Source: Gnetum montanum (lineage: Eukaryota; Plantae; Gnetophyta). From it: a stretch of DNA of 64,000 bases. Below the pieces are notes generated by a model. That model was given only the letters and a program-made list of their open reading frames with translations. It had not been told where the DNA came from and did not search any database. The stretch spans positions 1,178,001 through 1,242,000 of the forward strand of contig MNCI01000651.1 in assembly GCA_015680685.1 (NCBI GenBank), given 5' to 3'. Position 1 is the stretch's first letter. Every line of letters starts with the position of its first letter. Made by a program: the position numbers and the translations under genes. Below are positions 18,965 through 58,899 of this stretch, one piece after another.

Positions 18965-19760
18965 TGATGACTAGTGAGGTACCCCTATGCTCAACTATAT
19001 GAATACGAGCATTTCACACACGATTTGGTCGAATTCCAAGGACTAAGTGCCTATGCGCCTGTGTGGAACAATAACGGGTTGATTAATCGCTGTCTTCCCA
19101 AACTTACTTGTATGTCATGGTTGTATGGTTAAGCAAGCTTGAGGCATATGATTTTTATGGCTCTTATGTGTTTTATATCCTGTGCTAATAAGGAGGGGAG
19201 AGAGAAATAACTAAGTAACTAATCTAATTTAACTATTCATTAACCAACTTCTAAGTACTCCTAACACCAGTATCTGTTCCCACTTATCGTATACATCCTA
19301 AACTAGTGCAATGCTACTGGGTTACCAAGTGCTACATGCATGTTCAAAGTGGTCGTACTGAGTGTATTTAACTAAGAGAGTTGTAGGGTGAGAGAAATCA
19401 TTAATTAACTATGAAAGCATTAAATAATAATTAATACTAATTAATCTATTCTGTATGCTATAAGGTTTATCATAAAGTTCGTTTTTATTGCCATCCACAA
19501 AGTGTGCTTAGGTACACAATGCTCGAATAAAGATGCATTCACTCTATGACTCCTACTGCGGGCACGTAGAAATAATTCTAACTATGGAGGGAGAGAATGG
19601 CAAGAGTTTGGCTAAGGGACTAACTTCTAATTGTGGAAACTAAGGGTGTCGCCTCTTATTTATAGACAAGGAGATGGGCTGCGACATCGGGTATCCGACA
19701 TTGCATGGTAGATCCGATATCACGGACACAATATCGTGGACATGATATCACGATTCATCA
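18965..19760 (-). repeat. 3' LTR of element C
   Basis: Direct repeat of 28025-28860; PPT (gtcatggggata on minus) at 19761-19772. Confidence 0.93.
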
Positions 19761-21652
19761 TATCCCCATGACTAAATGAAACTTGTCCTCAAGTTCCTTA
19801 CAAAATATTGGGAAGGTATGGAATTATTAACTGAATGAACATTGATGGTGGAACAGGTTGACTGACTCAACATGCCCAGTGAACAAATCAACAATACAAT
19901 ACATGACATCATTAGTGTTCATGACCACAAAAGTGAACACTGTACATAAATGACATCCAACCTTATTTGGCAGCTGGAAAAGAAGAAGGAGAGAAAGAAA
20001 AGAATAAGACATGCAGCTGCGGATGCCAATATTGCGCCTTTCGTTGTTCATCCATAGCCACACCACCAATCTTGCTCCTTTCGCAAATGTTCTAGTTCCA
20101 ATCCATCCTGAGTGTTTTCTCTAGGCCCAGTCCATTGTTGTATGATTGTCATTTGCACACACAACATAGTCACAAATGAACGAGGATAGATAAATCATAA
20201 TGTAGTTGATACCTTGCCTTGATGTGAAGTGCATTGTCTAAGTTGTGGTTATGGCAGCTACTGGTTTTGAATTTTTAACACTGGTGACTACCTAAGGTAT
20301 AGGGGTTAGGAAAAATTGAAAAATTTGTGCCCGGGCCCCCATGATGAAGAGCAAACCTCTGGTAGCGATAGGATGGAAAAAGATAAGGAATAAGAAAGGT
20401 GGAGAAAAAGTAACAACGGCAATGCCAATAAAATGGATGTCATAGACGAGGATGAAACAAAAAGTTTTTGATTGTAGGAAATGTTTAAGGGAAAGAAATT
20501 AACAAATGCACTAAAAAGGAATGCCAATGGGTCCTCCCCAAAGCAGGCTCATGCCTTTAGTACCCTGATAGACCCACAACCCAAAGAGTCCATAGGCTCT
20601 AGGAATGTTAATTGGAAGCAAGAGTTAAAAACTTACCCATAATAAATTACTAAGGAAGAACAATGCATCAACCAAGATACAAACTAATGATAAAACTGGC
20701 AATGAGGTAAGAAATGGAAAAGAAAGATGGAGAGCAGAGAATGGAATGAAAACCCAAGAACAAGGTTGTGTAAAGTTTCTTGTGTGTTTCATGGTTAATG
20801 TGATAGAGAACTCATTCCAAATCTAGGCTCAACAATCTACATTTAGTGACCTCACATCAACACATTTGACCAACCCATCCCCTTGAAGCAACAAGAATGC
20901 CTCTACAAAAAGTCACCACCACTCCAAGGAAAGCGAGATGGAGAACCAGGAAGTGAGAAGGGGCCTTAATTAGAGGGAACCTTCAGGCATGGGTAACATG
21001 TCTTTCCAGTGCCATAAACAGTGCATGTAGCCCAAAATCATTATTGTGTCTAAGGGGTGTGCTTTGAATTCTTACTATTTTTTTTTGTGTTTTTCACGTG
21101 AGAACCACACCATGCAAAGACTTATTTTTATGTACTCAACTTCCGATAATTTGGTGAATGATCAGAATGGCAGAAAACCCAAGCAAAAAGCATCCAAGCA
21201 CTCAAGAGAATAGTTAGTAAAAATGCATATAATCCCCTTGAAGTCACACCCTTTTCATCCTTTGAGTCCTTTCTCGATCTGAGAAATACCCAGTTACCAA
21301 TTCATTAATAGTTTTATTAGAGGAAGGGACTATACAATTCCAAGCCAAGGAAAACCATAGGATTGTATGGGTGCATGAATGACATGGACTCATTACCTGT
21401 TAATCAAAAGAACCATACCCTAATTATCAACATCATACTTCAAAGGTAAAATCCAAACATTACCAATCAATATGATCTTATTCATACCACCATCATGAAC
21501 ACTTATTGGGTGATGAACAAAATGAAGTAATCACACAAAGAAATCGTAAAAATATGAATGATGATGTAAAACAAAAATAAGAAGATTAAAGAAATATGTA
21601 AAACAAAAATGTGTAAAACAAAAATTTGGAAAGAACTGAGGGTCTTTAATGA

Positions 21653-27600: not shown

Positions 27601-27892
27601 TATGCAGTGTACTCTACATGTAAGTGTTGCATGCCTATTCATGTGAGAGCATGAAGAAGCATTCTTGGGACTGAATGGTCAGAAGGTAACACTATGTTAC
27701 CTTCAAAGTCACACCAATGCAGTTGTTTGTCTTGGTGGAGAATAAAGGTGAAGTTTGGTACATATTCATCAGGGTGAATATATACCACACGAAACTATTG
27801 AGGAACTGGCGGATTAATGTCATGTGTAATTTACTGCCGATTGCTTCTTGTGTTAGTCCTAGTGAAGTGCTTTTGTGTGAAGAAGAAGACAT
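21653..27892 (-). pseudogene. gag-pol of element C (many stops and frameshifts)
   Basis: Gag DPQNHLQEFHDAC...KLKLFP; PR AILDSSSGVNLI; RT KDHFPLPFVDQ, FLDGYSGYNQI, VFMDD; RH ASNYALGAVL, NYTTIEKEL; IN WGIDFMGP, ISDNGTHF, EVTNREI. Confidence 0.93.
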
Positions 27893-28005
27893 TTTGTCTT
27901 GTTCAGTGTGCAATGCGCTATTATATTTTTCTTAACCAACCCTAAGGGTTCATTCCAGAGATGTGAATGATTTCCTAAGTTCTACTTAGCACACAAACAA
28001 CTAAG

Positions 28006-28023
28006 TCCCCAGCAATGGTGCCA
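28006..28023 (-). other. PBS (tRNA-Asp type, Athila-like) of element C
   Basis: Minus strand TGGCACCATTGCTGGGGA versus the Athila-type TGGCGCCGTTGCCGGGGA; differences are at CpGs. Confidence 0.85.
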
Positions 28024-28024
28024 A

Positions 28025-28860
28025 TGATGAGCGACAAAGTACCCCTATGCTCAACCATATGAATACGAGCGTTTCACACATGATCCAATCAAATTCTAAG
28101 GACTAAGTGCCTATGCACCTGTGTGGAACAATAACGGGGTGATTAATCGTTGTCTTCCCAAACTTACTTGTATGTCATGGTAGTATGGTTAAGCAAGCTT
28201 GAGGCATATGATTTTTATGGCTCTTATGTGTTTTATATCTTGTGCTAATAAGGAGGGGAGAGAGAAATAACTAAGTAACTAATCTAATTTAACTATTCAT
28301 TAACCAAGTTCTAAGTACTCCTAACATCAGTATTCGTTCCCACTTTCCATACACATCCTGAACCAGTGCAACGTTGCTAGGGTTACCAAATGCTAATCGT
28401 TACTGGGTTACCAAGTGCTACACGCATGCTCGAAGTGGTCGTACTAAGTGTATTTAACTAAGAGAGTTGTAGGGTAAGAGAAATAATTAATTAACTATGA
28501 AAGAATTAAATAATAATTAACACTAATTAATCTATTCTGTATGTTGCAATGTTTATCATAAAGTTCATCTTTATTACCGTACACAAAGTGTGCTCAGGTA
28601 CACAATGCTCGAATAAAGGTCTATTCACTCTATGACTCCTACTGTGGGCACACAGAAATAATTCTAACTCTGGAGGGAGAGAATGATAAGAGTTTGGCTA
28701 AGGGACTAACTTCTAACTGTGGAAACCAAGGGCACTGCCTCTTATTTATAGACAAGGAGACAAGCCGCGATATCAGGTATTTGACATTGCATGGTAGATC
28801 CAATCTTGTAGATGCGATATAGTGGACATGATAGTGCGTACGTGATATCACGGTTCATCA
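28025..28860 (-). repeat. 5' LTR of element C
   Basis: TG...CA termini; U3 GATATC cluster at about 28765-28855; TATA (ctataaat on minus) near 28750. Confidence 0.93.
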
Positions 28861-30859: not shown

Positions 30860-32928
30860 TGCAAAAATTGCACATGAAAAAAATGATAAATACAACTTTT
30901 AAAAATACTTAAGAAACATTATCATAACTGTTGAATCATGGAATATATGGATAAGTATAAATAATGTTGAAATATTTAAATAACTACTAGATGCATTAAA
31001 GATATACATGAATTGGTGTCTCTTCCCCATGACTAAGTTACAAGATACTAGGCTTGAACCACAGCTAGAACACCAAGAACACGAAAAAACAAAAAGAGTG
31101 CTTGTAAAAATATCATTAATCCAATCATTGAGGTAAAAAGTTGGCAAAGTTTCTCTTCTTTATGGTCAAATTGGAAGCAAAGGAAAGAAATAATGAAAAA
31201 GGTAAACTACAAAAATATGTTTGGAAGATCCTCCCATTTATAGTAGTGCATTGATGCAGGGAGGGTATGCTAGCATAGGGATATTGATGCCCCTACATTA
31301 ATGCATGGGGTGCATTAGCACATCCTCCCAAACTTGAAAAAAATGCAAAATGTCTCAAAAAAATACTCAAACTTATCTTCCTTCACTTCTAGAGCCTTGT
31401 GCAAGTTTAATAACACATCCAAATTACCATGAATTGACCTAGTAAAGCATCTAAGAACTAAGACAACAAAAGCATTATAAACTTACTTTTAGTGACATCC
31501 ACAATCATGGAAATTGAGATGATTGATTAATGTATGCATTCCCATGAACCAAAAGCTAGAAAAGAGGGGGTTAGAAAAATAGGAAAATTATTAAAGCATC
31601 AAAAATAATGGAATACAATCATAATTAAGGTGAATTGAAGAGAGTTTGTCATAGTTAAATCTTAAAGCACAATAGAGTCAACACTTGCACAAGTGAAAAA
31701 CCAATCAAGTGCCTTATGTAGTGCAACCACCATCATCACTAAGAGCTAAGATTTAATTACTAGCTTAAAATGTCAATCCACCAAGGATTCACAAGTGAAT
31801 CCTTCCCATAGCAAATACTTACCTTTCTTGATCTTGTGAAACTTTTTGATGAGACATCCATGGATTTCTAATAACTAGTGAGACATGAGCATCCGATACA
31901 AGTTTGTCCCCTTGAATGACCAGATCTCATCCTCTACTTCACCTAATCAACTTCTTATCATACATAACAATGGATAAGAAATGGAATGAAAAAAAATGAA
32001 GAATGAATAATGAATAATATAGAGAAAAGGATGAAAGTGCAACATTAAAAAATCGCTAGCCAACCATTCAATTAGCTCATGGAGCACGTGGGCATGTCCT
32101 ACATCTCATGAAAGATATATTACAACATCCTTTTATTACTACTCATCCATATAATGGGTATATACCTCAAAGTCTTCTTTCCAAGCACAAGGTCACACCT
32201 ACCACTTCCAATGTCATATAACCTTGATTATTCTATAGTCCAACCATTGGTTAGATTTGAAAGTTAAGATTCCAATTTAGTTTTCATCCATTTGTACATG
32301 TATACACAATAGGCTACATGAAGATTGCTTTACCAAAAACCTTTCATTGATCCCTTTGGTTGCACTAACCAATCTCATATCTTGATAGAAATCACAATGC
32401 CATGATCAAACAAAGGAAAATTCCATGTTCAAATAGAGTCACGGCTTCGAACAAGGATTATGAGGTTGATTCTTCAAAAAAATGATTTGGAATTTTAGGT
32501 GAAAGAAACATTTGATATCACACAAGTTTACTCAAAGAGAGACTTGTGGATATTTATGGTCATGGGTAAGGATAAGCAAGAGATTTTCTTGGATTATGAT
32601 AGTTTGGAAAATCAAGTAATCTATGCAATGGGTTAATTATGAGGAAAATTTCAATAGGCATTGATTCAAGCACTGATTTGATTTTGATATGAGAAATTAT
32701 AAAATTGGTTTGAGATGGTAAAAATGATAATTTACTTGGACTAATAAGCTTGAAGTTACATTACTCTTTTCATCATGTTTTTTTTTCATTATTATTTTAC
32801 TAATACTTTTTCTATTATTTTTTCTTTTTAATCATAATTTCTTTTTTCATCATTTTTTGCATTTTTCTTTTCATTTTCATCATTTTTTGAAAGAGGATTT
32901 TTTATGGAGCATGAGAATCATGGGAATG

Positions 32929-37303: not shown

Positions 37304-37397
37304 CATATATATAGATTTTTATAATGGATATAGTATAGATACAATATCGTGGATGTGATATCATAATGGCTAATATATCATATCTATGATATCATTG
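37304..37397 (-). promoter_or_regulatory. Internal promoter of element D: GATATC cluster + TATA
   Basis: ctatatatatg on minus at 37304-37314, preceded by several (G/A)ATATC copies like those in the clan's LTR U3. Confidence 0.55.
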
Positions 37398-39049
37398 TTG
37401 AACTTTTGAAAATTTTTGTGAGTTTTGATAAAAAAAAAAGAGTAAAATGGATAGTATGAAAAGTGTAAAGATGATCTAGAGGGTTCTTGATCATAGATGA
37501 TGCTTAGAATATAGGAATTAGTCATTAAAATTATGTCAAGGAAGGAGTTTAGCTAAGGCAAGTCAATTAAGCTTTTAGGAGATGGTTGATCAAAATTGCT
37601 AAATGTATGAACAAATATGAATATGTAGGAAATAACAATGATTATTTAGGTATTTAGGAGGTACAAATGATGTGGAATTGATCATCAAGTATGAAAGAAA
37701 GGAGTTATACAACTAGGTCCTCTCCAAAGTAGGCTCCTACCCTTAATGCTCTTGTATAACTACATCGAAAAGTATTCATAGGCACTCAAGGAGTTAAATG
37801 TAAATCATACTTGTCTTTCAAACATATATATCAGTATTATCTTAATAAAAAAAACTATATTATATAGAGCCATTAAATTATAATTATATATAATATTGAG
37901 GTGAAATGATAGTAGCAAGGATTATAGAAAATGGGACACGAGATGTCTTACCATAAGCATAATGAATCTTTGTTGTAATGCATGATTAAGATTATCATTA
38001 ACCTTTTCATCCAAGATCCAAACCAAGTCTATATCACTTACTAGTGACATTGCATTGTATCATCCCAAAATTGACAATCACAAAACTATCAAATCTGAAG
38101 GAAATATGATCACTTAGTAATGAAGTATAAGAACACAATTTATTAACACAATTTATTTAAAAGGAGACTTGGCCATTGGATAGAGAAGTGTCTTCAGGCA
38201 TGGGCAACATGTGTTTTTAGCTCCATATTCAATGCGAGTCCAAGAAACCTTGAAATTTCTAAGAAGTTACCTATCTTCAAGCATTAGTAACATGTCTTTC
38301 CAGTGGAACCTCCTTAGAAATTTTTAATATATGTATTAGATTATTTCTAGATCAACCTTACCAAAGGACTATCTTCAGGCATGGGTAACATGTTTTTCCT
38401 ATGACATGTTAAGGCAACATTTATTTTAGAACATACTTCCATTTTTTTTCATTAGAACTTAAGTAAATAATACAACTTAATAGTAGGATACAATTCATAG
38501 TAATAGATTTAAGGAATCTACAAATCCCCTTGATGTCACATCCTTTTCATTTCCACTTGGTTCTTCACTTTTCTATCCAAGCATAATGATCACAAGTTTA
38601 TTTTAGTTTTATTGTTAGAAAAATGTCATTATATGCATGGTAAGAACCTCTTATTATTGAAAATGAGTGGTCTTACTATCTATAGAATCAATCATTTAAT
38701 GATTTGATAACATAGGGTGAAATTCTTATTGTTTCAACTACATTTTGTTTATTTTATTACACTTTATTAGAAAGATCAAAAAAAAAAAAAACTATGTACA
38801 TGGAAAATGATAAAAATCATAGAAGAAAGAGAAATGGGTAAGAATGGAAAACCATATAAAGAATTTGAAAGATTTTAAAGAATGAAAAATGATAAGAAAT
38901 GTGAAAAGTTTAAAAGAATAGGAAAGAAATCAAAGAATGCAAAAAATTGGTAAGGAATGTGAAAAGTATATCAAGAATATAAATGAAAGGTTTGGTTCCT
39001 AAGTATAAAAATTGACACCCCCATGACTATTGTCAAAAGTAGTAATTTA

Positions 39050-41640: not shown

Positions 41641-42546
41641 TGATGAAGCGCTAAATAGTCGATGCGTTGACTAGGCTATGTATACGGGGCCCCATATACA
41701 TGGCCATATCGATGTAGCCCTGTTGACACATCCGTCTATGCATTGATGTGGCCCCGTTTATGCGAAGCTTGTTTTAGCTTATAAATAAGTGGGCTTATGC
41801 CACACTTGGGTACCTTTTTGACAATTGTAGCGAAGCTCTTGCAGTTCATTTCTGCAAGAGTTAGAATATTTTCTAAGTGCCTGGAGTAGGTGTAAGAAAG
41901 GTGTCTAGCTCTTTATTCGAGCACTAATGTACTTGAGCCCATTGGTGTGAATGGAAATAAAGATGAGCTTTTCAAGCATTCCTTGCAACAATTGGACTTA
42001 GTTATTTGATGCATTTAATAGTTTAATATTTCTATGCTTTGATAATTCCTTAAGTTTTTGTTGTTATTACCTTAATTTCCATCACTCTCTTATAGTTTGT
42101 GAAGACCATAAGTACGACCATCTCGAACATAAACCCAACACTTGGCAACCCAGCGACGCATAATGTCTAGAAACCCACTAGTGGCTAGGGGATGCTCAAG
42201 ATGTGTATGGAAGATGGGATCGGATACTTATGCTAGGAAAAGTTAAGATATAGATTAGGATAACTATAGATTGCATAATATTCCATTCCTTACTTTCTAT
42301 TTCAAGAATTAGCCGCTAGAAGATAAAGTGAAAAAGCCATAAAAATCATTTGTCTCAATCTCACTTAACCATTGCAATCAAAACATCACAAGTGAGGTTG
42401 GAAAGACAATGATCATTTTAACCTAAGGTTTTTCTAGTTAGGCTCTAGTGTATGAAAAGTGCTTACAGTCTATGGAATTCGACCAAGTCATGTGTGAACA
42501 CCTGTGATTTGCATGGTTGGGTATAAGGGTACCTAGCCACTCATCA
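41641..42546 (+). repeat. 5' LTR of element B
   Basis: TG...CA termini; U3 with GTATAC/GTCGAC-type palindromes; TATAAAT near 41780. Confidence 0.92.
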
Positions 42547-42547
42547 T

Positions 42548-42565
42548 TGGTGCCGTTTCCAGGCA
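42548..42565 (+). other. PBS (tRNA-Asp type) of element B
   Basis: TGGTGCCGTTTCCAGG, 1 nt after the LTR end. Confidence 0.8.
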
Positions 42566-42704
42566 CTGTTAGTCTTACATGTAACCTTAGGAAAATTATC
42601 ATTCATGTCATGGGAACGGACCTAGGATAGTAAAATCTATGCACACTAGGCGGCCTAAGTAAAAAAGTAAGGTACACCAATTAGTGGATTATCTAACATC
42701 CAAC

Positions 42705-45700
42705 ATGTCTTCTTCTCACAGGCAAGATGGATCCAACCCACCAATGCCACAAGAATGTCAGGTGGTATACACGCATCTAGATGAATATGTCCCAAACTTC
42801 AACTTTATCCTACATTAGGATGAGCATTTGCACTGGCGGGACATGGAAGGCAACATCATACTACTGCCTGACCGATCAACTCCTGGAATGTTGTTTCAGA
42901 ATCTTGCCTGACTCGGCATTCAGGACTATGATGTGGAGTACGTCATGGAGGATCATGACTATTGGGGCTATCGTCCCACTGAGGCCCAACATGTACGAGA
43001 CCAATAGCAAGAAGAATGGTATGAACACATGAAGGGGCATTAGTTCAGTAACCCCTTATTCTTGTAAGGGTTGTAGGACGATGGGGAACCTATATTTTAT
43101 GATTCCCATTTGGCCAAACTTTCAGTGGGGCATCAGATCATTCAGTCCATCATTCAAAACAAGAAATCAAGTGATTGGGACCCCTAGGAGGATGGAGGAT
43201 CACGTAGGAGAGGTCATGGAATAAGCAGAGATGGGCATGAAGATTGGGACTATCATTAAAGTAGAGGGGGAGATCAACGTCGAGGTGGTGGTGATTCTTC
43301 TCCCTCTTCTCCATCCTTTCGCTCCCCTCTACCTTCATCCAGTTCCAACTCAGATTGGGACTACGGTAGAAAGGAGCGAGGTGATGGTGGTCGTAGGGAC
43401 CAAAGGGAATGACGTGAGGGAGTGCGTGAACAATGACACGAGCCTCACCATCAAGAAAGGAGATGTAGCTAGAATCGTCATAGAAATCATGGCCTTCAGT
43501 AGGACTATGACTTGGATGAACTATTGTTGGCTACTCGAAGCATGCTCCATATCATAGAGGTAGTTCAAATACCCAATAAGGACTTGAAGGATAGCCAGAT
43601 CAAGCGCATTGACATGAAAAATATTCCTAGATTTGAAGGGGGATATAATTGTGATATGCAAACTCACCTACAAGCATTTCATGATGCTTGCACCCTGCAG
43701 AACATCAATAATGATTGGCAAAAGTTGAAGCTATTTCCTCGCACACTCATCAAAGAAGCAAAAAGCTAGTATCGATCTTTGGAATCGGAATCAATTAGGA
43801 GATGAAGTACAATGCTGGAGATCTTCAATGACAAGTATCAAACCTACTCTAGAGTGGCGAACCTGAGATGCCAAATCCAAGGGTGGAAGTAAGGTATTCA
43901 TAAACCCTTAGATGCAACCATGAGCAGATACTACTCACTGTTGCATTAATTCCCTGATCATGGCTATTCTCAGTGGGCACAACTTTGCCATATCATTGAT
44001 GGGCTCTGCTTTGAAACTAGAAAGACCCTTGGTGTGTACACGTAAGGATAGCTATCAGAACTAAGAGCCCATCAACTATAGCACCTAATTGAGCAAGTGG
44101 ATAAAGAAGAGAGGGAACTTAGAAAGAAGGAGAGTGTAGAGGAGTTTAATTGGGATCCCTCCATTAGAAAGAGGAAGGTCCAATTTTGTGAAGATGAGGA
44201 GGAATCACCATTGGATGCAGCAGTGAACTAAAAAACCTTTCCCCTACAAAAATTTTCCTCTAAAATATTGCTAACGTGGATAAGATGTGGGACTCTTTGG
44301 ACGAAAAATTTCAAAGTGTTCTGAAAATTGCAGAGGAGTCCAAAGAGCAAGGTAATGATCGTGATCGGCATAGGAAGAAGAAAGCTGAACGTGCCTACCA
44401 TAAAGGTAAGGGCAAAGTTGCTATAGCAGAATAGGTTACGGACTTTGATACAGAGGAAGATGATGAATGTAACATATGCCAATACAAACATCCTAATGGG
44501 TGTTATCTTGTGGTGTCACATCTATAAGAGTCTAGGGTGTATGCATTGAATCCTCGTTTGGAAAAGAGGCAAACTCCCCAAAGGTTGTCTTACCCACAAG
44601 GCAACCCCAGGCAGTTCCACCAGTAGTAAGGATATTATCCAAGTGGAATGCCACCACAACCTTATGAATACTTTCAGCAATGGCAGCACCCACAAGCATG
44701 GGAAATGCCACCTCCAAGGTAGCAGTACCCTTATCGACATCCAAATCCCTATGGGTACTACGTTCAGCAACTAGTCTCCCTGTGGGACTCTTCCAGTCAC
44801 GCAACCTTTCAGAATTACTACCATCCCCATAATATTTCTGACCATAGTCTTCATCACCTAGGGGAGGCCAACATCTCTACTATCCTTTATCACCTTCTCC
44901 TGAAGGCCCTACTTAGCAACACCCCACTCAGTTACCACCTGCTTCACCTATGTAGGGGGAGATACCACCACAACCACAACAATGCAATGCTACGAGGGCT
45001 GTTAACCTACAATTGGCTTCTCAACCGAATGGACAGGAAGCCAAGCCATGGAAATGTCCCTTTTCTCGGCCTAATAACCTAAGCATACCCTCACATGCAC
45101 TTGTGGCTAGTGCCTCTAAACCTCAAAATGCCTCCACTGTTATACCCTTCGAGTAGCCTTCAAACTAAATGCCCTCCAACGTACAAACAATCATGCTCAC
45201 ACACGCCATGACCAACTGGATAAAATTAGATCATCTTCCTTGAAAATTGACTGATCTGGGAAGCCCCCTCATCTATCTTCAGGTGGCAAGGAATGAGCCA
45301 TGTAAAGCTCTTCTAGATTTGGGGTTGAGAGTCAACTTAATTTTACATGACATGTACAAGACTTGGAACTTGCCTCCATTAAAGAAGAGCAACATTTGGC
45401 TTGAGCTGGCAGACCAATCCATTACTGTTCCCTTAGGATTGGTAGAGGACATTGTGACCACCATTTGTGGGTGGTCCTATCTTGCTGATTTCCTTGTCAT
45501 TCATGTTGAGAATTACAAGGAAAACTTTCCAATCATAATGGGAAGAGCTTGGTTGAGCATGGTGGATGCAAGATTGAGACTCTAAGATCTTTTTCTTAAA
45601 ATTTCAAAGGAAAATACTTTTTGAAAGACTGAGAAGAAGTGCATTCCATGCATCGCGTACAGTGACTCCAAGTGCAACTATGTGCAGCAGCTATGGTCCG

Positions 45701-48700
45701 CTTAGCGGACATCTATCCAAGCATGCAGTTGGTGTATTGAGGAATCGCAAGTTCAAAAATGCTTGTACATAGCAGCCACAAATCAAGAAGGCACCCAGTG
45801 GCTAACTGCTGATCCTACTAGCAGAACTTTGTGCATCGAACCATCTGAGGGGCTTGTATGTGCCTATGTAGAAAGCATGGATGATTTGGAAGAGGTTCAT
45901 CAACAAGTATCCACTATTGATGACCTTGATGATTGGGGAAAGTTGCAAATCCATGAAAGTTTTAAACTAGAGCCCTTGGAACTCAAACCCTTACTAGCCC
46001 ACTTAGAATATGCATTTTTGCAGAATGGGAAACCAGTGATTATCAGTGCCACCCTTGCTTCTGAATAGAAGAAGAAGTTGCTGAAGGTGGTGAACAAATG
46101 GGAAGCTACTTTTGCATGGTCATATTCTAAATTAACAGGAGTTGATCCTAGGGTTTGCCAACATCAAATTTATATTGACCCCTCCATGAAGCCACGACGA
46201 TAACCACAAAGGTAATTGAACCCCAAACTAAAGTAAGTTATCAAAGATGAAATTGAGTAGTTGCTGAAAGCAGGGTTCATCTATTCCATTGCTGATAGCG
46301 AATGGGTCAGCCCACTCATTATTCTACCAAAGAAGGATGGAAAATGGAGGGTTTGTATAGATTTTCAATTGCTCAACATGGCTACCTTCAAAGATCACTT
46401 CCCATTCCCATTCATGGACTAGATGTTGGATACCATTACGGGGCATCGTTATTATAGCTTTTTGGATGGCTATAGAGGCTATAACCAAATCCAAATCGTG
46501 CCAAAAGACCAGGCCAAGATAACCTTCACAAGTTCCTAGGGGAAATTTTTCATACAAAAAGATGTCCTTTGGCCTGTGTAATGCACCTGCCACTTTCCAA
46601 CGCCTTGTCCTCAACATCTTCTAGCAAAAAATTGGAAATGGGGTAGAAGTCTTCATGGATGAATTCTCTACCTATGAAGCCATGTTTGGTCAAGCCTTGG
46701 ATAGCCTTGAGCAAGTTTTGAAAGGATGTGTGGAAACTAATCTATGGCTCAACTGGCAGAAAAGCCACTTAATGATCCAAGAGGGCATTATGCTAGGGCA
46801 CCGTATTTTACAAACAAGGATTAACATGGATCCTGAAAAAATCAAGGTCATCCAAGGAATTACCAGGTAGCCAAGCACTGTAAAAGATGTTCAGTTATTC
46901 CTTGGCCACATTGGTTACTATCGACGCTTCATTGAAAATTTCTCGAAGATCGCCAAGCCATTGGTGGAACTCATGAAGAAAGATGCTTTATTTGTCTGGA
47001 CCAAGGAATGTGAATCTTCATTCAAACACTTAAATAGAAACTCGTAGAGGCCCTAGTTCTATGAGCACCTGATTGGTCCAGACCCTTCCACATCATGACG
47101 GATGCATGCAATTATGTATTGGGAGTCGTGTTCACATATTGGGATATTAAAAAACGCTCATACTATATTCACTATGCAAGTCGTAGCATTGTGGGTGGTC
47201 AACTTAACTACACCACCATTGAAAAAGAGTTGATGGTGGTGGTGTTCGCCTTGGAAAAATTTTGACACTATGTGCTCAGGTACAAGGTGTTTGTGCATAC
47301 TGACCATAGTTCCATCTGGTTCCTAATGAACAAACCAATGATGAGCCCCCGTATCATATGGTGGCTGGTGATTCTTCAAGAGTTTGACCTCACTATGGTA
47401 GATCAGAATGGAATTGAGAATGTGGCCACTGACCACTTGTCTTGGTTGCGATGGAATAATGCAAAAGAGGAGGAGCCACTCTCTGACCAATTCCTAGATG
47501 AAATCCTCTTCGTGGGAGCGGTCGATACGCAGGTGCCCAAAGAATAACCTTGGTCCAACCATATCCTCACCTATCTCACAACTCAGGAATTGCCAAAGGA
47601 GTGGGACCACCAACAAAAAGAATAGTTTTTCCATAAGGCCAAGTGCTTCATGGAAATAAATGGTCACCTTTACAAGGTGTGTGCAGATGGCCTAATTAGA
47701 TGGTGTGTCCTTGATGATGATACACTACGCATCCTCTAAAATGCTCACGAGGGCCCTTTTGGGGGCCACTATGTTAGATGACGCATGACCATTAAGATCC
47801 TACTTGTAGGATATTACTAGCCTACAATTTTCAAGGATGCAAAATGGTTTGCCCACTCCTATGAACGATGCCAGAGAGACAGTGGGATGACTGCACGAAT
47901 GGGGGAACCTTAATAGTGGATCCAACTGTTGGAGTCCTTCAACATTTGGGGCATCGAGTTCATGGGTCCAATCACATCCCTGTCTAACGGAAAGGGATAC
48001 ATCATCGTGGATATGGGCTACTGCACAAAGTGGGTAGAGGCGGCAGCCGTTATCAACTGTTCCTTAAACACTATCGCACAATTTGTCCAACCACAAATCA
48101 TCAATAGGTTTGAAGTGCCACGTGCACTCATCTCAAACAATGGAATGCATTTCATAGGTGTCACTTTTCGTAAACTCATGCAACACTTGGGGGTTACCCA
48201 TAAGTTTACAACACCTTATCACCCCCAAGCCAATGGGCAGGCCGAAGTTACCAATAGGGAGATCACCAAAATCCTTACTCGAACCATAAATAAATATAGG
48301 AGGGATTGGAGCACCAAAATTAATGATGCCCTCTGGGCCTACTTCTCTACTTGGAAACTTCCTATAGGTTACTCTCCCTATGAGTTAGTGTACAATAAGC
48401 TATTGAAACTTCCAATTCAAGCAAAACTCTGGACACTATCTACAACCTGTGACTTGGGTCTTGACCTACCACTAGCACAACATGAATGACTTATCAACCT
48501 AACTATGCTAAATGAGAATCAATTGGTGGCCCTGTCATCAAATGAGATACACAAGGCCTACAATAAAAAATTTCATGATCTTAGGATTCGGAAGGTAACA
48601 TTTAGATGTGGAGATAAGGTCCTTTATTGGAACCCCACACACATACCACAACCAACCAAGTTTCAAACACTATGGGGGGGACCTTACATTATCTCCGAAA

Positions 48701-48900
48701 CCTTTTCATCTGGGGCCTTACTTATACAAAAACCTGAGGATCCCATGAGAACACAGTTGGTCAATAGGCAATAATTAAAACTTTTCTATGATCCCCACTA
48801 AACTAGTCCTACTGCATCATCATCACAAGGACAGGATCCTTCCATTTTTTTGCATCTCCTCCTTCCAGCCTAGTCGTGGGGGAGATCGTTGTCCATGCTA
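42705..48900 (+). pseudogene. gag-pol of element B (many stops)
   Basis: MSSSH start shared with element C; gag IPRFEGGY...KLKLFPRTL; PR ALLDLG; RT KDHFPFPF, VFMDEFS; RH; IN TPYHPQANGQAEVTNREI. Confidence 0.93.
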
Positions 48901-50118
48901 ATCCATTCTACTAAGATCCCCACTATTTTTGGAACTTTTTGTTTTTCACTTTTTTGTTTTTCAACATTGTTCATACGTTTGCCAATTCTTACTAAGTTCT
49001 TCATTCTTTAATTACTTTTCCATTTCTTTGTTGCTTACTTATCTGTGTTTGTTTCATTTCCAGTTGGTTGCTAATACATCATCTTATTTTCATCAGGTGT
49101 ATGGTGCGGATGGTTTTTGTTGCGATGGGTCACGTGAAAAGGTCCACCTATTTTATCTCACTCTTGCCCTCACATTATTGTTCTTGGAATTTACGTCTAC
49201 TTTCATCTCATAAAATCAACAGTGAGTCGACATCATCCACCTATTCATCCACTCCATGGTTTTCCTCCCTTTGGAAACATGCAAACCCCTTTACTTAAGA
49301 ATATTTTAATTAATGTGTGACTTGTGTAGTTTCCAGACTCGGGGATGATCCAATGGTTTGAATCGGGTGTGATTTCAAGGGGAATGCAAAATTCATCGTC
49401 CTCTTCTATCCCTTGAGTTGTAGAAGTGCCTTTACAGATTTCTTACCACTCCAAGTTCTTTTCTACAAGGAATCTCGTTAGCAATTTGACCTTGAATGGT
49501 GTGGTCCTCATCGCAAAAACACAAAAAAAACGTGAGGATTCAAAGCACACCACTTGGTCGAATGCATGCAACCAAGCATGGGTCTTTGCATGGTGTGGTT
49601 CCCACAAAATCAAACTAAAAACAAAAATAAAGTCCTAACTATGTGGGAATTCAAAGCACACCCCTTAGACTGCCTCTCATGGGCCACAAGCACTAGTTAT
49701 GGGACTCGCTTCATCCCCTCTAACTTAGTCTCGATGCACTTCCTTCCTCTCATGTCTGTTAGAGTGGTGGTTCTCTGTGGGTGCATTCTTATACACTTGG
49801 GGGGTGGACAAGTCTTCATATGTTGCTGCAATGTCATTGTATGTGGTTGGTTTTGGGTTTGAACTCGGGAAAGGTCCTACTGAGTCACTTAACCACAACT
49901 TCACATGGGGTTTCATGTGATCGATAATTGGAATTTCAATTCTCTCTTCTCTCTCATCATCCATTTCTCTCCATGACTCACCTCACTTCCTATCTTATGT
50001 TTTGATAGTTTGTCATGATTTCCATGAACTCCTCATGCTTCAGCAAGTTCTCATGGATGGGAGTATTAACTTGCAATCATCATTTCTTGACCCTAGGACC
50101 CACGAACTCTAGTGTTGA

Positions 50119-50177
50119 GGATATGCAAGGGCTATTGCAGCTACCGCTTGCTATGGGGAGGACCTACTTGCATATCC
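50119..50177 (+). other. Conserved stem-loop (11-bp stem, 37-nt loop) in the post-pol spacer
   Basis: GGATATGCAAG / CTTGCATATCC. Homologues with different stem sequences at 18154-18208, 20518-20574, 31788-31840 and 37703-37761. Confidence 0.75.
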
Positions 50178-50429
50178 CTAGTCCCATTTGTTAGTCTTTC
50201 ATCCTCTTGATTTTGTTGGTGGATTGTTTTCATGATACCCATCGCTCGACTTCTTCTCCGCAGAGTTCTTTTTCACCACATTCTTCTACTTTTGACTCCC
50301 TTTTTTGTTCACTTACCTTCCTCTTTCTCTTGGCCATGTTCCTGGTCTCTCCAACTCTACAACCACCCCAATTTGGCATTTTAAATCCATTTTTGGGCTT
50401 TTATCAGGCTAGTTAATGCTGGTCAATGG

Positions 50430-50952
50430 GTGCAACCCCTTGCGTATACGTGGCCTTGTATACGTAGCCCCCCTGCATATACACGACCCCATCAACGTAG
50501 CCATAAACCTCTATATATACCCCCATCATGTGTTACATTTTCATTAATTTTACACACAAATTGGGTAGAGATTTTTCATTTTTCTACCTCGCCTCTTCTT
50601 CCAAGCACTTACATTGTCTACCGCGCATCCTAATCAACCTATCCTTTCCTTCTTTAGAAATTGAAGGTATGCTCTCAATCGTGGGGGGTGAGGTCTATTC
50701 AAATTAATTAATTACTTACAATTACAATCAATAAATACTTAACACCTCTTAAGGGAAGAAACAAAAACAACAGTTTAAACTCCAACTCATGCCTATTGTT
50801 TTTTGGTTCTAACCGCCCATCAATTACTACTCCAAGAAGTTTAATGGGATGCACGTGATAGCACCATAACTTAGTCAAAATGAGAAGGTGTATGAGGGCC
50901 ATTTTGAGCAATTTTTTATACAATATTAATTAGTAGTTATGTTTTATTGTAG
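50430..50952 (+). promoter_or_regulatory. Internal promoter + leader intron of element B accessory ORF
   Basis: LTR-like GTATAC/GGCC cluster at 50441-50503, CTATATATA at 50511, donor AAG|GTATGC at 50667, acceptor ttttattgtAG|ATG at 50952. Confidence 0.62.
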
Positions 50953-53760
50953 ATGGCACTGAAACCAAGGCATCCAAGGGGAGAAGGACCATCACAACCA
51001 AGGGATAAGCGGCGAAAAATGAGAAGAGGATGAGGTGTGCAACACCTAGAGCATGCAGAGGACACCCATGCAATTGGCCCCATCCATGAAGGACTTGATG
51101 TTGAATCTGTTCATCATATTCCTAAAGAGGATATCCTTAGTGAACAATCGCAAGGGGATGAGACTCCGGTGATAGTGCCACGGCTTGAGGTCACCTTGAC
51201 CCAGGTATGTCTTAATGCTATCAAGCCAAGGGAAGTGTAACAAATGGTCCTAGAAGAGCTGAAATTTGGACCATTTCTTAAGAATGCACCAGAAGAGGTG
51301 ATGCTCCAATTACAAAACTCCCCTATGTGGCCAATAATCACATCCATTGGTGAATGGTACTTAGGAGAGACTTACCTCTTTTGGACAAATCGATAGCTGG
51401 GGTCCAGAGTAAGAATCAAGCTCTGGGGTTACCTGAGACTAGAGTCAATATGGCGAAGATCCCTAAGTAGGCAGATCCCAAGGTAAAAAGGGAGTGGATT
51501 AGGTGGTGTTATGGGATGGATCGTAAAGAGTTTGGCACTCAGACCACCGTGGAGAGGGTGTATTTAAAAATTATGTCTTACCACTTGAACCCAATGATGA
51601 GACCCAAAAAAATCATTGCCTTCTCCACTCATGCATGTGCTGCTCTAAGTGAAAAATTTCCAATGAGCCTTCCATAATTGTTGTTCCTGGAGATTGAGAA
51701 AAGGTTCGTTGAAAGCGAACGTGGAAAATAGGCTTTACCCTTTCCTTGCTTAATCAAAAAATTATGCAAACGAGCAGGGATAGCACGATATGTCAATGAT
51801 ACACTTCGGCACGCCCTGATTGCCTTGTGATGGGAAATGATGAAAGATAGGACTTTGGCCACCACACAAACTAAGAAAGAGCAGCAACCGCCTCCACCAC
51901 TTATGCAAAAAATGAGGTCAAGTTCACAAACAATCATAGAAGATATACATGAAATCTAGCAATCACTCTTGAGCCAACAAGAGCAACCTGGAGGGATCGG
52001 TGGAGGAGAAGAGCCTTCGGTTTATTGCCCTGCAATGAGCCATTTGGAGCAAGTGGCTCGATCAATAAGTCTATTAGAAAGAGCAAGGCTGATGTTCTCT
52101 ATTGCCTAAACACAAGTACCTACAAGAATTAATCCTAGTGTCCAAGAAGTAACGGTATCCATCCAACAGTTGTTTCCTGAAATTTTAAGGAATGCTGCTA
52201 CTTTTTTGGTACGCTTGGAGGATGGAGAGGGGGTGACAGTCCTAGTGATGCAGCACCAAGGATAGGAGATTACAGCCGAAGTGGTTGCTAATACAATTGC
52301 TACAGCCCTCAATGCACCAGTGGCACCTATACTAGATGTACATGGACTCAAAGATGTACAAGCGTTTGCTAGGACTTCACGTAGGAGGATCGATGTAGCC
52401 CAACATGAAGAACTATTGGATCGACTGATGGAAACTAGGCAACCACTTCTGGATGTTTTTGATGTTTCAGATAGCATCACTACAACCCAATCGGAGCTAC
52501 TTTCAACAAGGTTTAAGAGCCTCATCTTGGAGGGGAAACTCAAAGTTGCTCAAGCCAATTGTCAATGCTTAGCAAAACAAAAGTTACCTAATTAAGGGCC
52601 CACCTTGTCGATCTAACTCTTTTCAACCGTGAACTCACTAGAGATGAATCTTTTCAATGGCTTCAAGTCAAACTCCAAATAGTTGAGGATGAGCATGAGT
52701 CGATGACTTTTGATAAGTCCTTGGCAGACGTTCATGCATATTACCTAAACAAGGACCTGATAGAGGTTCGCCAGAAGAATATAAGGCTAACCACGGAAGT
52801 TCATTGCCTGCGCAATGTTGGTGATGAAAAGCAACACATGAAAAGCTTTATCCACCAATAGCAGGAAGAGCTAGCTAGCGTAAATGTTGATGTGAGGGGT
52901 TGGCCACTAAAAATCAAAATCTGTCCATGGAGGAGGTTTGTACCTTGTGACAGAAATCAGCCATCAAAATCGCCACTTTGAAAAGTAAAGCCCTTAAGTT
53001 TGAAAAAGTTAAGAATCATTACAAGGACCAAGTGGGTTACAGAAGGAAGTGAATGAAAAACATATTCAAGTCATTAAGGCTAAATTGAACCAAGTGCTCT
53101 AGCAGCTCTAAGAAGAAGGTGAGGTATGGCAACCTATCTTTGATGGGTTGAATGCATACAACCAGGCTAAAATCCATCTCAAGGAACTACAGATTGAAGA
53201 AATGACAGAGTACATGGAGTTGGCCAACCTTCGCTATGCAAACTTGGCTATGCTAATAGTTGGGAGACCGTGGTTTGACCTAGAAAAGAAAGTGACCACC
53301 TCCTATTCTTTATACAATGGCGAGTTCCATGCACATAAAGCAACAAAAAAAATTGAAAACAACAAATGCAGAACTCGAGGTCCTTCGCACGTATTTTAAG
53401 GGACAATGTGTGGTTTGGTTTTTCAATTTGAACAAAAATAGTTCGTGGCTTGGTTTGTCAATTTGAAAGAACTCTTCCCTGCGCGTCCATGCCCTTGGGA
53501 GGTTCCAGTCCCAGCACACATTAGTGAAGCCACTTAGATAGTGAATGATCCTAGAAGTAAGGAAGAAAAAATGAGGACTCTCTTGGAGGCATTTCGGTTG
53601 CCTCCAGAAGTTGCAGTTGCTATGAGACAACAATCATCCGTGCCATCATCACCACATGTGCCAGAGGCTGGTGAAGGTTTGTCAAAACCACTGGCACCAG
53701 GGATGATGTAATCTTCTCTAGCAATTTTTGCATCTTTCAGCACAACAGAGAATCCAAGAT
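50953..53760 (+). pseudogene. Accessory ORF of element B (about 930 codons, decayed): basic N-terminus, plant-transposon-protein-like core, long coiled-coil
   Basis: MALKPRHPRG...RRKMRRG; VYLKIMSYHLNP...ALPFPCLIKKLCKRAGI; LQIEEMTEYMELANLRYANLAML; CPWEVP. Confidence 0.82.
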
Positions 53761-53954
53761 TGTTGGGGTGTTCAGTTTTATCTCTAAATCCCACCATTTT
53801 GTAATTTTTCCTTCTCTATACACTCAAGCACTTGGTGCATTAGTAAAATTGGTGTTATGTCATGTGTGTTGTGTCATGTGTGTTGTAATAAGAAGTCCAT
53901 ACTTCCAAATTGTATAGGAACTCAAGGATGAGTTTTTACTCAGTCATGGGGGTA

Positions 53955-54905
53955 TGATGAAGCACTAAATAGTCGATGCGTCGACTAGGCCATGTATATG
54001 GGGCCTTGTATACATGGCCATGTCNTGGAAGCCCATTTATTTATAGGCTAAAACAGGCTTCGTGTAAACGGGGCCACGTCGACGCATGGATGGATGCGTT
54101 GATGGAGCCGCATTGACATGGCCATGTATACAAGGCCCCATATACATGGCCTAGTCGACGCATCGACTATTTAGTGCTTCATCATACCCCCATGACTGAG
54201 TAAAAACTCATCCTTGAGTTCCTATACAATTTGGAAGTATGGACTTCTTATTACAACACACATGACACAACACACATGACATAACACCAATTTTACTAAT
54301 GCACCAAGTGCTTGAGTGTATAGAGAAGGAAAAATTACAAAATGGTGGGATTTAGAGATAAAACTGAACACCCCAACAATCTTGGATTCTCTGTTGTGCT
54401 GAAAGATGCAAAAATTGCTAGAGAAGATTACATCATCCCTGGTGCCAGTGGTTTTGACAAACCTTCACCAGCCTCTGGCACATGTGGTGATGATGGCACG
54501 GATGATTGTTGTCTCATAGCNGTGTCTGGTAACCCAATAGTGGCTAGGGGATACTCAGGATGTGCATGGAAGATGGGATCAGATACTTATGCTAGGAAAA
54601 GCTAAGATATAGATTAGAATAACTGCAAATTACATAATATTCCATTCCTTACTTTCTATTTCAAGAATTAGCCACTAGAAGATAAAGTGAAAAAGCCATA
54701 AAAATCATTTGCCTCAATCTCACTTAACCATCGCAATCAGAACATCACATGTGAGGTTGGGAAGACAACGACCGTTCTAACCCAAGGTTTTTCTGGTTAG
54801 GGTATGGTGTATGCAAAGTGCTTATAGTCTACAAAATTTAACCCAGTCACGTGTGAACGCCCATGATTTCCATGGTTGGGCGTAGGGGTACCTAGCCGCT
54901 CATTA
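53955..54905 (+). repeat. 3' LTR of element B (mis-assembled internally)
   Basis: The start matches 41641, and 54522-54905 matches about 42163-42546. The interior is interrupted by N at 54025 and 54521. Confidence 0.85.
54026..54520 (-). other. Inverted contig between two gap Ns (assembly artefact)
   Basis: 54115-54520 is an apparently exact reverse complement of 53619-54024; the segment is bounded by single Ns. Confidence 0.85.
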
Positions 54906-55676: not shown

Positions 55677-56514
55677 TGATGAGTGGCGAGGTACCCCTAC
55701 ACTCAACCATACAAATACGAGCGTTACATGCGCGATCTAGTCGAACTCTGCAAAATAAGTGCCTAGACGCCTCATGGAATAGGTTAATCATTTGTTGTCT
55801 TCCTAGACTTACTTGTAGATGTCACGGTTATATGGTTAAGTAAGTCTGAGGTATGTGATTTTTATATCTTTTCTGTTTTATCTCCTATGCTAATGAGGTG
55901 AAGGGTGAAGAGACTAATTGACTAACTTTAACTAACTACCTAAGCCTTAATTAACCTATCATCATCATCTGTTCCCACTTACCATTCACACCCTGAACCA
56001 ATGCAACCTTGGTTACCAAACGCTATTCGTTACTGGGATCACCAAGCGTAACGCACATGCTCGAAGTGGTTGTATTGAATGCACTTAACTATGGGAGAAG
56101 GGTTGAGAGAGATTTAATTAACTAATAAAGAAATTAAATGGTAAAAAATAAATGATAATAAATAAAGTCCTATTTAGCCTATTTAGCTTAGTCCATGCAT
56201 TGCAAGGTTTATCCAATAGTTTGTCTTTATTGCCATACAGAAACTTGTGTTCAGGTACAATATTTTCTCGAATAAAGATTCATTCACTTTGGAGTTCCTA
56301 TTGCGGGCACATGGAAATTATTCTATCTTTGGAGAGGTAAAACTGCTAGAGTTTCGCTATGGTCTAGGCCTAAATTGAGAAACAAGGGAGAGCTGCCTCT
56401 TATTTATAGACTTGGTGGTGCACCGCGATATCGCGGGGGATGACACGATATTGCGTGGGATGCGATATCATGGCATACATGATATCGCGGCCCATGCGAT
56501 ATCGCATCCCATTA
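55677..56514 (-). mobile_element. Solo LTR, Athila-like GATATC clan, inserted in the protease region of element D
   Basis: TGATGAG...CCCATTA termini; perfect TSD ACTAG (55672-55676 and 56515-56519); CGCGATATCGCG cluster. Confidence 0.92.
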
Positions 56515-58899
56515 ACTAGCCACTTATGGTAGTGATCACATATTCTACTTGTTCAAATGGAACCATGATTGACTAGTTTACTAGCTCTAATTAGATGTTG
56601 CTTTTCTTCAATGGAGGAAGATTCTAAGCCTTTCTCTGTTAATATTAGAAGCATAGTATTCTCCTAAGGACCTTGTGTAGATAGAGTAGAGTTAGATGAA
56701 GTCCCCATTCTTTGAACCTTTTCTGGACTTGCCCTAAAGAATGGGCATTTCCTAGATCTTGGTTCACTTGTTGTTATATCCTCTTATGTAGTGAATACCC
56801 TAGTAGCACTCTTTTGCTATGGCTATGTTGGTAGTTCTCTTTGCATGACTCATGATCGTATTAGTGGTAATGGATTAGAAGCTTAATATGAGAAACCAGG
56901 TGCTAGTTAAGATGTGTAAGGATAGGAATCCATGCATGATGTTGTGGGTCTATGGTATTCAAGTAGATAGAAGAGAGAGGAAGTAAAATAGAAGTATTTT
57001 TGGGAGAAATTAGGCATTGTACATAGTATCCATAGGGATCCAACTACCTATATGGATACTACTACGTTGGCAATGACATTTTCAATGATTATGATGAATG
57101 CCAATATTGCTAGTATTGCTCCTATAGTTAAGGATAGATGCCGCTTAGATAGTATAGTTGTTGGTAGGGCTATCTAAAATTACCTTGCGAGTAAGATAAT
57201 TACTTGGGCATTTGTTTCTTAATAAACTTTAGATTAAGTACATATGCCCTAGACCATTGTAAGTGGATTGTGATAGAAAAACATCCCTTAGGATATTTAT
57301 ATTGGCATACTTTACAATCTGTGTCTTTTTTGAACTTGAATCTATTATTTTTTCTACTGTAGGAACTATTCCTTTATTGCTATAGTTATCATGTCCATTG
57401 TCCTTTTTCTTCTTTCTATCTTTATTGTTGTTAAAGACTTGCTTAGTTCTTTCCTCTATTATCTTGAGTATTGTAGTGAATTTCTCATCCACATAATCCC
57501 ACATTTTCTCTACTTTTATTACAATGTCACTTACTAATTTTTGAATAGGTAGAGTCTCCTACTTGATTGCATTTTCTAGTGTTTCTTCTTCTTGTGTTTC
57601 ACATATCCTTACATCTATTTTTTTGATAGATGGATCTCTATTATGTTCTTGAGATGACTCTCTTTTCCATAACTCCCATTCTTCTTTCTCCACTTGGCCT
57701 ATCAGCCACTGGATCACCACCTAAAATATTTCATCCAAATGGCTAGAGTGCTAGATCACCACCTAAAATATTTGACTTGCACAAGCATGAAAATTCATCA
57801 CTTACTGCATGGCATACATAGATTCATGAGATCACAAACCTCTTCTAACTAGGATGGCTAGGCAAAGTAACATGTGCACCTTGTTCTACTCACACCTATT
57901 AGTCCCATCTAGTGATCATAAGGATTTTCAATGAACATTTCATTGATCAAGGCTCTACTTTGGACCTGTTTGGCACTGTTGCATCTTCATCATATATATA
58001 ACTCACTCATCCACCATTGGCTTTTAGATGAGAATTCATAAAGCGTATTAATTGATTTTCCTACAATACACACAAATAAAAACTCTATAAATGAAAAGAA
58101 AATATCATAATTGATTATCCATTAAGTTCAAAATGTATAAAATTCTAACTAAAAATACTAACTTTATTACATGCACAAATGAAAAATAGCAAAAAATAAA
58201 TAAATTTTCCATGGCTTGGAGGATTTATTCTTCATGATTTAATCATTTCTATTATCTCATAGACCTATAAATGTTAAATTAAGCATTATACATGCAACAA
58301 AATATATTCATTATGGTACAATAGTTATTATTCATCAGTGTTCCATTTGGCTCGCTTGAATGACACATGCACATGGTGCTACTAAACTAGAAAGGATCAC
58401 AAGGTATTTTCTAGTAATTCATCCTTCTAATCTCATCTCTTCTACCAATTTTGAGCTAAAGGCCTTGGAAGATTAATTTGGCATTAGTTGTCCTCAACTA
58501 GGCTCTTCCCATGATAATAAGAAGATTTTCTTTCATCTTGTTTTATGACTTGATCATTAGAAAATTAGTGGAATACAACCAAACTACAATAGAAGTCATT
58601 ATATCTTACACCTGTCACATGGGATATGAATAGGATTAGCCTATCAACTTTAATCAAATGTTAGTAAACTTGAGAGAAGAAAGCCCCCACTCAAGGTACT
58701 ACTACAATAAGATGAGATTGACTCATAAATAGAAGTCACAGAGAGCTAGGAAATGACCCTTTTTAACAATTTGAACTTTCACCATGGGACTACGAGGATC
58801 TAATTATTTTTTAGGTAAATATCCTTATTGCCCATGTAGCCACCATAGACATGGGAATGGTGATAACATCACCATTAGGTGTCATCTTGTTACCTATAC

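Follow-up and report, generated by a model that had tools for sequence, protein, structure and literature searches.

Mammalian LTR elements keep RNA export signals behind pol, as in the CTE of MPMV, the RTE of IAP and the MTE of MusD, and the packaging signal of Ty1 is found at its 5′ end. In plants, in whose genomes Athila elements are very abundant, the 3′ part of LTR retrotransposon RNA can contain the ENE triple-helix, a stabilising structure with an internal loop that is U-rich on both strands. Another class of structure, the exoribonuclease-resistant RNA (xrRNA) of the flavivirus type, forms a three-way junction in which the L3 loop pairs with the sequence just 3′ of P1. A second xrRNA, coremin, occurs in beny-, cucumo- and other RNA viruses, as described in three reports (PMC6546385, PMC10520033, PMC10321173). 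For Athila itself, one report gives as criterion the order gag-PR-RT-RH-INT without an additional RNase H (PMC6317226), and two others describe priming by tRNA-Asp and an extra polypurine tract, or PPT (PMC1142308, PMC2829016). Our searches of the open-access literature turned up no account of a structured cis-acting RNA located in the spacer of Athila elements, and none that links coremin to retrotransposons.

Here we analyze a stretch of 64,000 nucleotides of Gnetum montanum DNA (the window), in which a preliminary description had reported five related stem-loops within retroelement copies. We describe the larger motif to which these stem-loops belong as a new structured motif and a candidate cis-acting element of retroelement RNA, a class that is already known.

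Results

Host elements and their setting

A nest of decayed gypsy-type LTR retrotransposons adjoins a TIR-NB-LRR gene in the window (Table 1). Five elements, B, C, D, X and Y, carry the motif; all except B occupy the minus strand, one nested within another, and X is a partial element with a truncated accessory ORF. In B and C, the RT, RNase H and integrase (rve) domains follow one another in this order, and no additional RNase H family was detected among 86 scanned fragments, which are short and decayed. The PBS resembles what we take to be a tRNA-Asp site, extra PPT-like tracts are present, and B and D have homologous accessory ORFs 3′ of pol (tblastn E 1e-33). By gene order, PBS, extra PPT and 3′ extra ORF, we classify the host elements as Athila-type. 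The accessory ORF of D has a weak match to Transposase_32 (PF20167; E 3e-4, below the curated cut-off), homology of the downstream ORF of Y to that of D is not established at E 0.057, and a search of the decayed gag regions of B, C and D that allowed one mismatch found no CCHC knuckle.

In an integrase tree with a midpoint root and no labelled references, the cores of B, C and D form a long branch outside a 23-row flowering-plant clade (97/99), which suggests that the host elements belong to a divergent Athila-type lineage and may point to a non-flowering host plant. The best integrase identity among the 120 matches listed is 51%. Scans of the window for tRNA and tmRNA found none; a scan for bacterial promoters and terminators, of no relevance here, was empty.

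Table 1. Positions of the motif, its host elements and neighboring features in the window, and of the motif behind pol in flowering-plant loci (positions within each locus)
Feature	Position	Strand	Remark
Element B	41641-54903	+	LTR 41641-42546, PBS 42548, broken gag-pol to ~48800, then spacer; broken accessory ORF; PPT 53942; 3′ LTR scrambled at two Ns
Element C	18961-28859	-	LTRs 28859-28026 and 19760-18961; 5-bp target duplication; broken gag-pol
Copy B	~50093-50179	+	stem-loop first reported 50119-50177
B P0	50093-50112	+	6-bp hairpin, 8-nt loop; the model for all copies has 5 pairs
B P1, outer stem	50119-50129 with 50167-50177	+	closes the 37-nt three-way junction
B P2, arm	50130-50152	+	3 bp, 5-nt A-rich bulge, 4 bp, variable tetraloop
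B P3	50154-50166	+	4-bp hairpin, purine pentaloop; most widely shared part
Copy X	18149-18236	-	in partial element; stem-loop 18154-18208
Copy C	20514-20601	-	P0, P2 and P3 intact, P1 weak; stem-loop 20518-20574
Copy Y	31782-31869	-	stem-loop 31788-31840
Copy D	37700-37787	-	stem-loop 37703-37761
B internal TATA box	50512-50519	+	predicted promoter of accessory gene
B predicted 5′ UTR intron (GT...AG)	50667-50952	+	PPT-like tract at 50678; directly before ATG 50953
B broken accessory ORF	50953-53700	+	homologous to D accessory ORF
PPT-like tracts	50678, 37147, 31034, 17593, 48872, 39028		just after pol and 80-220 nt after each internal TATA
Stretches before internal TATA	50360-50520, 37320-37470, 17760-17910		short repeated words resembling LTR U3
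Second small hairpin	20981-21007, 18670-18696, 18732-18758, three near 38200-38420	-	flanked by GGAAA / TGAAG
Duplicated block	49500-49670 (+) and 21048-21121 (-)		common to B and C spacers, 75-82% identity
B 3′ end	53640-54903		two Ns enclose a nearly perfect inverted duplication; probable assembly artefact
Solo LTRs of C's LTR family	15781-16590 and 55677-56520		each with 5-bp target duplications
TIR-NB-LRR resistance-type gene	8148-13750		72-nt LRR repeats
Post-pol motif, L005	3172-3234
Post-pol motif, L008	6130-6193
Post-pol motif, L013	9027-9088 and 10508-10580 (-)		two elements
Post-pol motif, L014	4573-4636
Post-pol motif, L018	930-992
Post-pol motif, L007	~2360-2405		variant

Structure of the motif

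All five stems were found where the preliminary description had placed them, each enclosing exactly 37 nt, and their arms differ yet pair: among the 9 positions closing the 37-nt loop, Watson-Crick pairs number 9 in B, 9 in X, 8 in Y and 8 in D, and C, which had been called a decayed variant, forms 4. Loops of 35, 36, 38 or 39 nt would be closed by 1-4 Watson-Crick pairs only, and at least 8 closing pairs are reached at 21 of 63,900 window positions (0.03%). The loop itself had been described as a hairpin followed by a linear sequence motif. Instead, the loop contains two helices, the reported YTGCTWTGGGGAGGACCYA stretch being mostly paired.

The five copies align nearly without gaps over 96 columns. 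A further covarying hairpin, P0, lies about 9 nt upstream of the reported stem, so that the unit in B is larger than first described. We model the whole as P0, a linker of ~9 nt and a three-way junction made of the outer stem P1, the bulged arm P2 and the purine-loop hairpin P3, with one unpaired base between P2 and P3. P0 has 5-6 bp across copies and a loop that starts with CC or TC; an alternative 5-bp register of P2 also fits (21 of 25 cells); and the last four letters of the P3 loop, AGGA, are invariant in all five copies.

Each of the five elements has one copy of the motif in its spacer. A degenerate loop pattern at no more than 3 mismatches occurs at exactly these 5 window sites (shuffle mean 0.03), a count that is circular because the pattern was drawn from the same five loops. 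With a covariance model the five copies score 82-91 bits and the next window match 12.7 bits, and no sixth copy was found. Since D and X are related (72% over 109 nt), the five copies amount to about four independent lineages.

Pairing and covariation

Across the five copies, 85% of the 129 cells of the structure model are paired and 11 of 26 pairs change on both sides. Two-sided changes occur in four of the five pairs of P0 (79% of cells paired), in five of the ten pairs of P1 (88% paired) and in two of the four pairs of the P2 hairpin (P2b); none was seen among the five copies in the base of P2 (P2a) or in P3. On five measures the observed values were reached by 0-5 of 500 shuffles, and slid controls pair at 32-50%, a comparison to be read with the model having been derived from the same five related sequences that were scored. 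Identity between copies is 0.46-0.73 in the core and 0.22-0.35 in ungapped flanks.

RNAalifold predicts P0, P1 and a variant of P2, and misses P3. Single-copy folding of the whole unit is no better than that of shuffles (z -0.74 in B, -0.30 in C and +0.50 in D), the core alone reaches z -2.3 for B only, and the minimum free energy structures of C, D, X and Y depart from the model. Among 105 model cells, G-U outnumber A-C combinations on the sense strand, at 16 vs 6 (one-sided p 0.026), which leans toward sense RNA, and antisense folding is not better overall (alifold -10.7 vs -14.2 kcal/mol). We consider it highly probable that the motif folds as RNA on the sense strand of the element.

Independent variation was sought in contigs of four public DNA runs with four organism labels, which were aligned to positions 50060-50220 (1,067-1,637 unphased contigs per run). 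In one run (X1), summed depth reaches ~90,000 over 50150-50173, falls to ~15,000 along the 5′ arm and is 400-5,900 in the flanking sequence. The 3′ core has 15-30 times the summed depth of the flanks, and the other three runs give a profile of the same shape. Although summed depth is no copy number and seeding favors conserved stretches, this profile suggests that the 3′ core is common to many more elements than the flanks of B. The two pairs disrupted in copy B are intact in 89-95% of summed contig depth. Variants at 8% or more affect 15 paired positions. At 13 of these the variation fits pairing, and this set includes three position pairs whose two sides vary at comparable rates (unphased); the two pair-breaking variants are both G>A at CG or CHG sites, which are methylatable contexts. 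The remaining variants of the junction are confined to the bulge and the tetraloop.

Position relative to pol and the internal promoter

In B, C and D the motif lies 1.0-1.3 kb after pol, in the spacer that separates pol from the accessory gene. The preliminary description had put an internal TATA 330-550 nt downstream in four copies, and we measured 335 nt in B, 397 in X, 546 in Y and 380-392 in D. Element C has neither internal TATA nor accessory ORF, with no TATA within 800 nt of the motif, and keeps the motif though it lacks the accessory gene. Being upstream of the internal TATA, the motif would be confined to genomic RNA if the TATA marks a real start site. Pairing, contig variation and the absence of a matching Rfam family (below) together support the preliminary claim of a conserved, covarying and uncatalogued structure upstream of the internal TATA.

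Four raw RNA runs with the same species label gave 45-625 reads each, mostly less than 90% alike and from both strands; these reads heap up at A- or T-rich tracts, and depth at the motif is 0-2.4. None of them was seen to bridge the predicted 5′ UTR intron of B. Reads from relatives also accumulate at the block duplicated between the B and C spacers, next to A-rich tracts.

Short repeated words before the internal TATA resemble those of LTR U3 regions (Table 1), hinting that the internal promoter may have been copied from the LTR or may co-evolve with it. The region upstream of the TATA shares 6-mers with the LTR of its own element only weakly, at p 0.21 in B, 0.04 in X and 0.03 in D (uncorrected, 28 comparisons). 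A second small hairpin, present in up to three repeats, precedes the motif by 400-670 nt in C, X and D (Table 1) and also occurs in loose ends of reads from relatives of B; by eye, its layout does not fit that of a hammerhead.

Searches against known families and other DNA

The Rfam check that had been suggested found no family at the motif in Rfam 15 (4,227 models, ribozymes included), with a sensitivity lowered by the decay of the copies. One 16.6-bit match to an unstructured lncRNA model overlies C (E 4.1, gathering 60) and none overlies B. Rfam ribozyme models gave no match at E 1 in the window and none at E 10 in 400-nt stretches around B and C.

A scan with the motif pattern found 0 occurrences in viral contigs and 0 in bacterial genomes. 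One metagenome match (L001) was set aside as chance because it lies in GC-rich, bacterial-like DNA, lacks the outer stem and has a model score of 8.5 bits. In viral contigs, searches with integrase returned 0 loci and 1 unrelated locus, and there was no plant element among the 10 matches listed for plasmids. An integrase-alignment search of bacterial assemblies returned 44 loci, many of them plant contamination; within many bacterial genome records we find plant retrotransposon contigs (L003-L033) that are contamination, and the seven contaminant loci that were placed in the integrase tree fall inside the flowering-plant clade. One of these contigs, L008, has an open gag-pol frame of 2,015 codons and, on its minus strand at 750-855, matches plant snoRNA R71.

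A coremin-like motif behind pol in flowering-plant Athila

Seven distinct Athila-like loci have at least 80 nt after the pol stop, and in five of them (L005, L008, which is the same as L009 and L010, L013, L014 and L018) a hairpin-spacer-hairpin lies no more than 20 nt from the stop. It also follows pol in a second element in L013 and is absent from L003; in L007 a variant occurs ~770 nt after the pol stop, behind an extra ORF. The spacer is A-rich, and each stem has one two-sided change among four sequences. The motif agrees at 9-11 positions with the final 13 letters that PMC10520033 prints for coremin, compared with a background in which 9-10 matches occur in 0.6-5% and 11 in none of 799 window tiles. 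It has 3-4 loop-to-spacer pairs, like the Watson-Crick coremin of PMC10321173. As the loops mostly break the YG..AD rule and some spacers differ at positions essential in BNYVV, we grade the motif as coremin-like, not as coremin. It has no Rfam match.

The motif in the window and the one behind pol are alike in having a 5′ hairpin with an 8-nt loop and in the order AAG, GCT, TGGG-purine loop-CCCA, CTT. The window covariance model has no match in the 12 flowering-plant loci searched, and covariance models of the two motifs do not detect one another in either direction. A profile of the window motif ranks six of seven post-pol motifs in the top 3-10% of 402 control tiles; the reverse profile ranks C in the top 0.5% and the other four copies in the top 16-57% (368 tiles). 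Homology of the two motifs is weakly supported by these rankings.

Discussion

If the motif folds as an RNA, what might it do? The preliminary description had suggested packaging, dimerisation or export, functions inferred from position. We tentatively favor the possibility that a protein recognises the motif as a mark of full-length genomic RNA and that this serves packaging or nuclear export. Four points lead us there: genomic RNA and accessory mRNA would have the same 3′ end, the motif would lie just outside the accessory mRNA, its P3 loop is invariant and it is kept in C, which lacks an accessory gene. With the predicted start of the accessory mRNA at the internal TATA, 335-546 nt beyond the motif, a mark placed shortly before it could be read by Gag, or by a host factor for export or stability, to distinguish the two RNAs; the invariant AGGA loop and the A-rich bulge would be the contact points. 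Against this reading stand the 5′ location of the packaging signals of retroviruses (psi) and of Ty1, the CCHC knuckle that was not found in the decayed gag regions of B, C and D, the unremarkable folding of single copies and the weak 6-mer resemblance between the internal promoter region and the LTR. Since the motif is compact and can be made in vitro, the sorting of genomic from accessory RNA would be directly testable.

The main rival, which the preliminary description had not considered, is that the motif is an xrRNA whose fold would stall XRN4-type 5′-to-3′ decay and leave a stable 3′ fragment over the accessory gene. The coremin-like motif at five of seven flowering-plant Athila loci makes this a serious alternative, in which the motif in the window would be its lineage-specific counterpart; even so, we think such a block rather unlikely. 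For it speak the 9-11 of 13 coremin letters and the 3-4 loop-to-spacer pairs of the post-pol motif, the 8-nt-loop 5′ hairpin common to both motifs and their ending in GCT followed by a TGGG/CCCA purine-loop hairpin, and the ranking of six of seven post-pol motifs in the top 3-10% by the window profile. However, the models do not cross-detect and the reverse profile is positive for C only; the window copies match coremin at background level, without the AACUA spacer and without a YG..AD loop; and the motif lies 1.0-1.3 kb after pol, compared with 20 nt in the flowering-plant loci. The P0 loop could form a pseudoknot, for which 20 of 25 cells are paired, but covariation is absent (305 of 500 shuffles) and the loop has two alternative partners of equal fit.

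In a wider form of this rival, which we likewise think rather unlikely, Athila elements would carry xrRNAs behind pol of two kinds: a pseudoknot of the coremin type in flowering plants and, in the divergent lineage, an elaborated form that joins a hairpin to a three-way junction. If this is true, decay by host XRN4 would yield a subgenomic RNA with defined limits from the 3′ part, much as happens in plant RNA viruses, which would tie LTR retrotransposons to a viral strategy and provide a source for Athila 3′ transcripts. Should either motif block XRN4, an LTR retrotransposon would contain an xrRNA, for which we found no precedent in the open-access literature.

It is improbable that the conserved letters are transcription-factor sites in a DNA-level upstream element of the internal promoter, with pairing incidental. 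The motif does lie 335-546 nt upstream of the TATA in four copies, B has an exact GGNCCCAC, which we take to be a class I TCP-like site, at 50096-50103, and a second occurs at the P3/P1 boundary in most relatives. Yet the exact GGNCCCAC is absent from the motif in C, D, X and Y, leaving one of five copies, C has the motif without a TATA, and two-sided changes in P0, P1 and P2b are unexpected for factor sites.

We see similarly little likelihood in shared ancestry without selection on structure, whereby an old conserved block would have acquired stems by chance or by post-hoc fitting. Five related copies with unremarkable folding energies would suit such an origin, and related sequences may beat shuffles without any structure. 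Nevertheless, the flanks are at background identity, four copies form 8-9 of 9 Watson-Crick pairs around exactly 37 nt with different arms, and the independent variation in contigs respects the stems.

Still less probable is a single-stranded DNA or reverse-transcription signal tied to the extra PPTs that would act in pausing, in strand transfer or in ending plus-strand synthesis. In B (48872, 50678) and D (39028, 37147) the motif has PPT-like tracts on either side, in C, X and Y such tracts come after it, and a stem-loop at the PPT has been proposed for Sireviruses (PMC2829016); but the nearest tract is 170-760 nt from the motif at a spacing that is not fixed, and G-U pairs are tolerated on the sense strand. 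Least probable is that the motif acts as an undescribed self-cleaving ribozyme and would cleave genomic or antisense RNA there. Small ribozymes typically show what is seen here, namely a loop of constant length, invariant purines in a junction and a size of ~90 nt, and ribozymes occur in plant retrozymes; yet no Rfam ribozyme model matches in the window (E 1) or around B and C (E 10), inspection finds neither a hammerhead core nor an HDV-type nested pseudoknot in which a junction strand precedes the closing stem, and efficient cleavage would destroy the genomic RNA.

How does the motif compare with the systems described so far? Like the window elements, Sireviruses (PMC2829016) are plant LTR retrotransposons that have an extra ORF, extra PPTs and, in the 3′ non-coding part of the internal region, a stem-loop that is conserved; however, they are Copia and the window elements gypsy, and the Sirevirus inverted repeat encloses the terminal PPT at the PPT/3′ LTR junction, whereas the motif in the window has several helices and lies far from it. 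The likeness to coremin extends to the 5′ hairpin, which has 3-5 bp and in some cases an 8-nt loop (5-6 bp with covariation and an 8-nt loop in P0), to a spacer of 8-10 nt before a second helical domain (a linker of ~9 nt in the window) and to location, coremin being found in 3′ UTRs and intergenic regions and our motif in a non-coding spacer. Coremin differs in its essential AACUA spacer, where the window copies match 7-8 of 13 letters, as background does; in its YGAD or YG(N)nAD loop, which P0 lacks; in having a plain second hairpin in place of a three-way junction; and in a 3′ hairpin whose sequence, unlike that of the motif, is not conserved. A three-way junction is also the feature common to the motif and flavivirus-type xrRNAs. 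An L3-type complement 3′ of P1 has 4 bp in X, Y, D and C and 3 bp in B at positions that shift, and its pyrimidines can instead extend P1.

The ENE is, like the motif, a structured element in the 3′ part of plant LTR retrotransposon RNA, but its U-rich internal loop is absent from the motif, whose bulge is one-sided and A-rich. The export and packaging elements CTE, RTE, MTE and psi have no sequence or Rfam match to the motif, which is far smaller than the RTE or MTE, and psi differs further in lying near the 5′ end. With these elements the motif nevertheless shares the nature of a non-coding structured element on genomic-length RNA, its confinement there being predicted; like the CTE, RTE and MTE it lies behind pol; and in P3 it presents, as export and packaging elements do, a purine-rich loop on a short hairpin.
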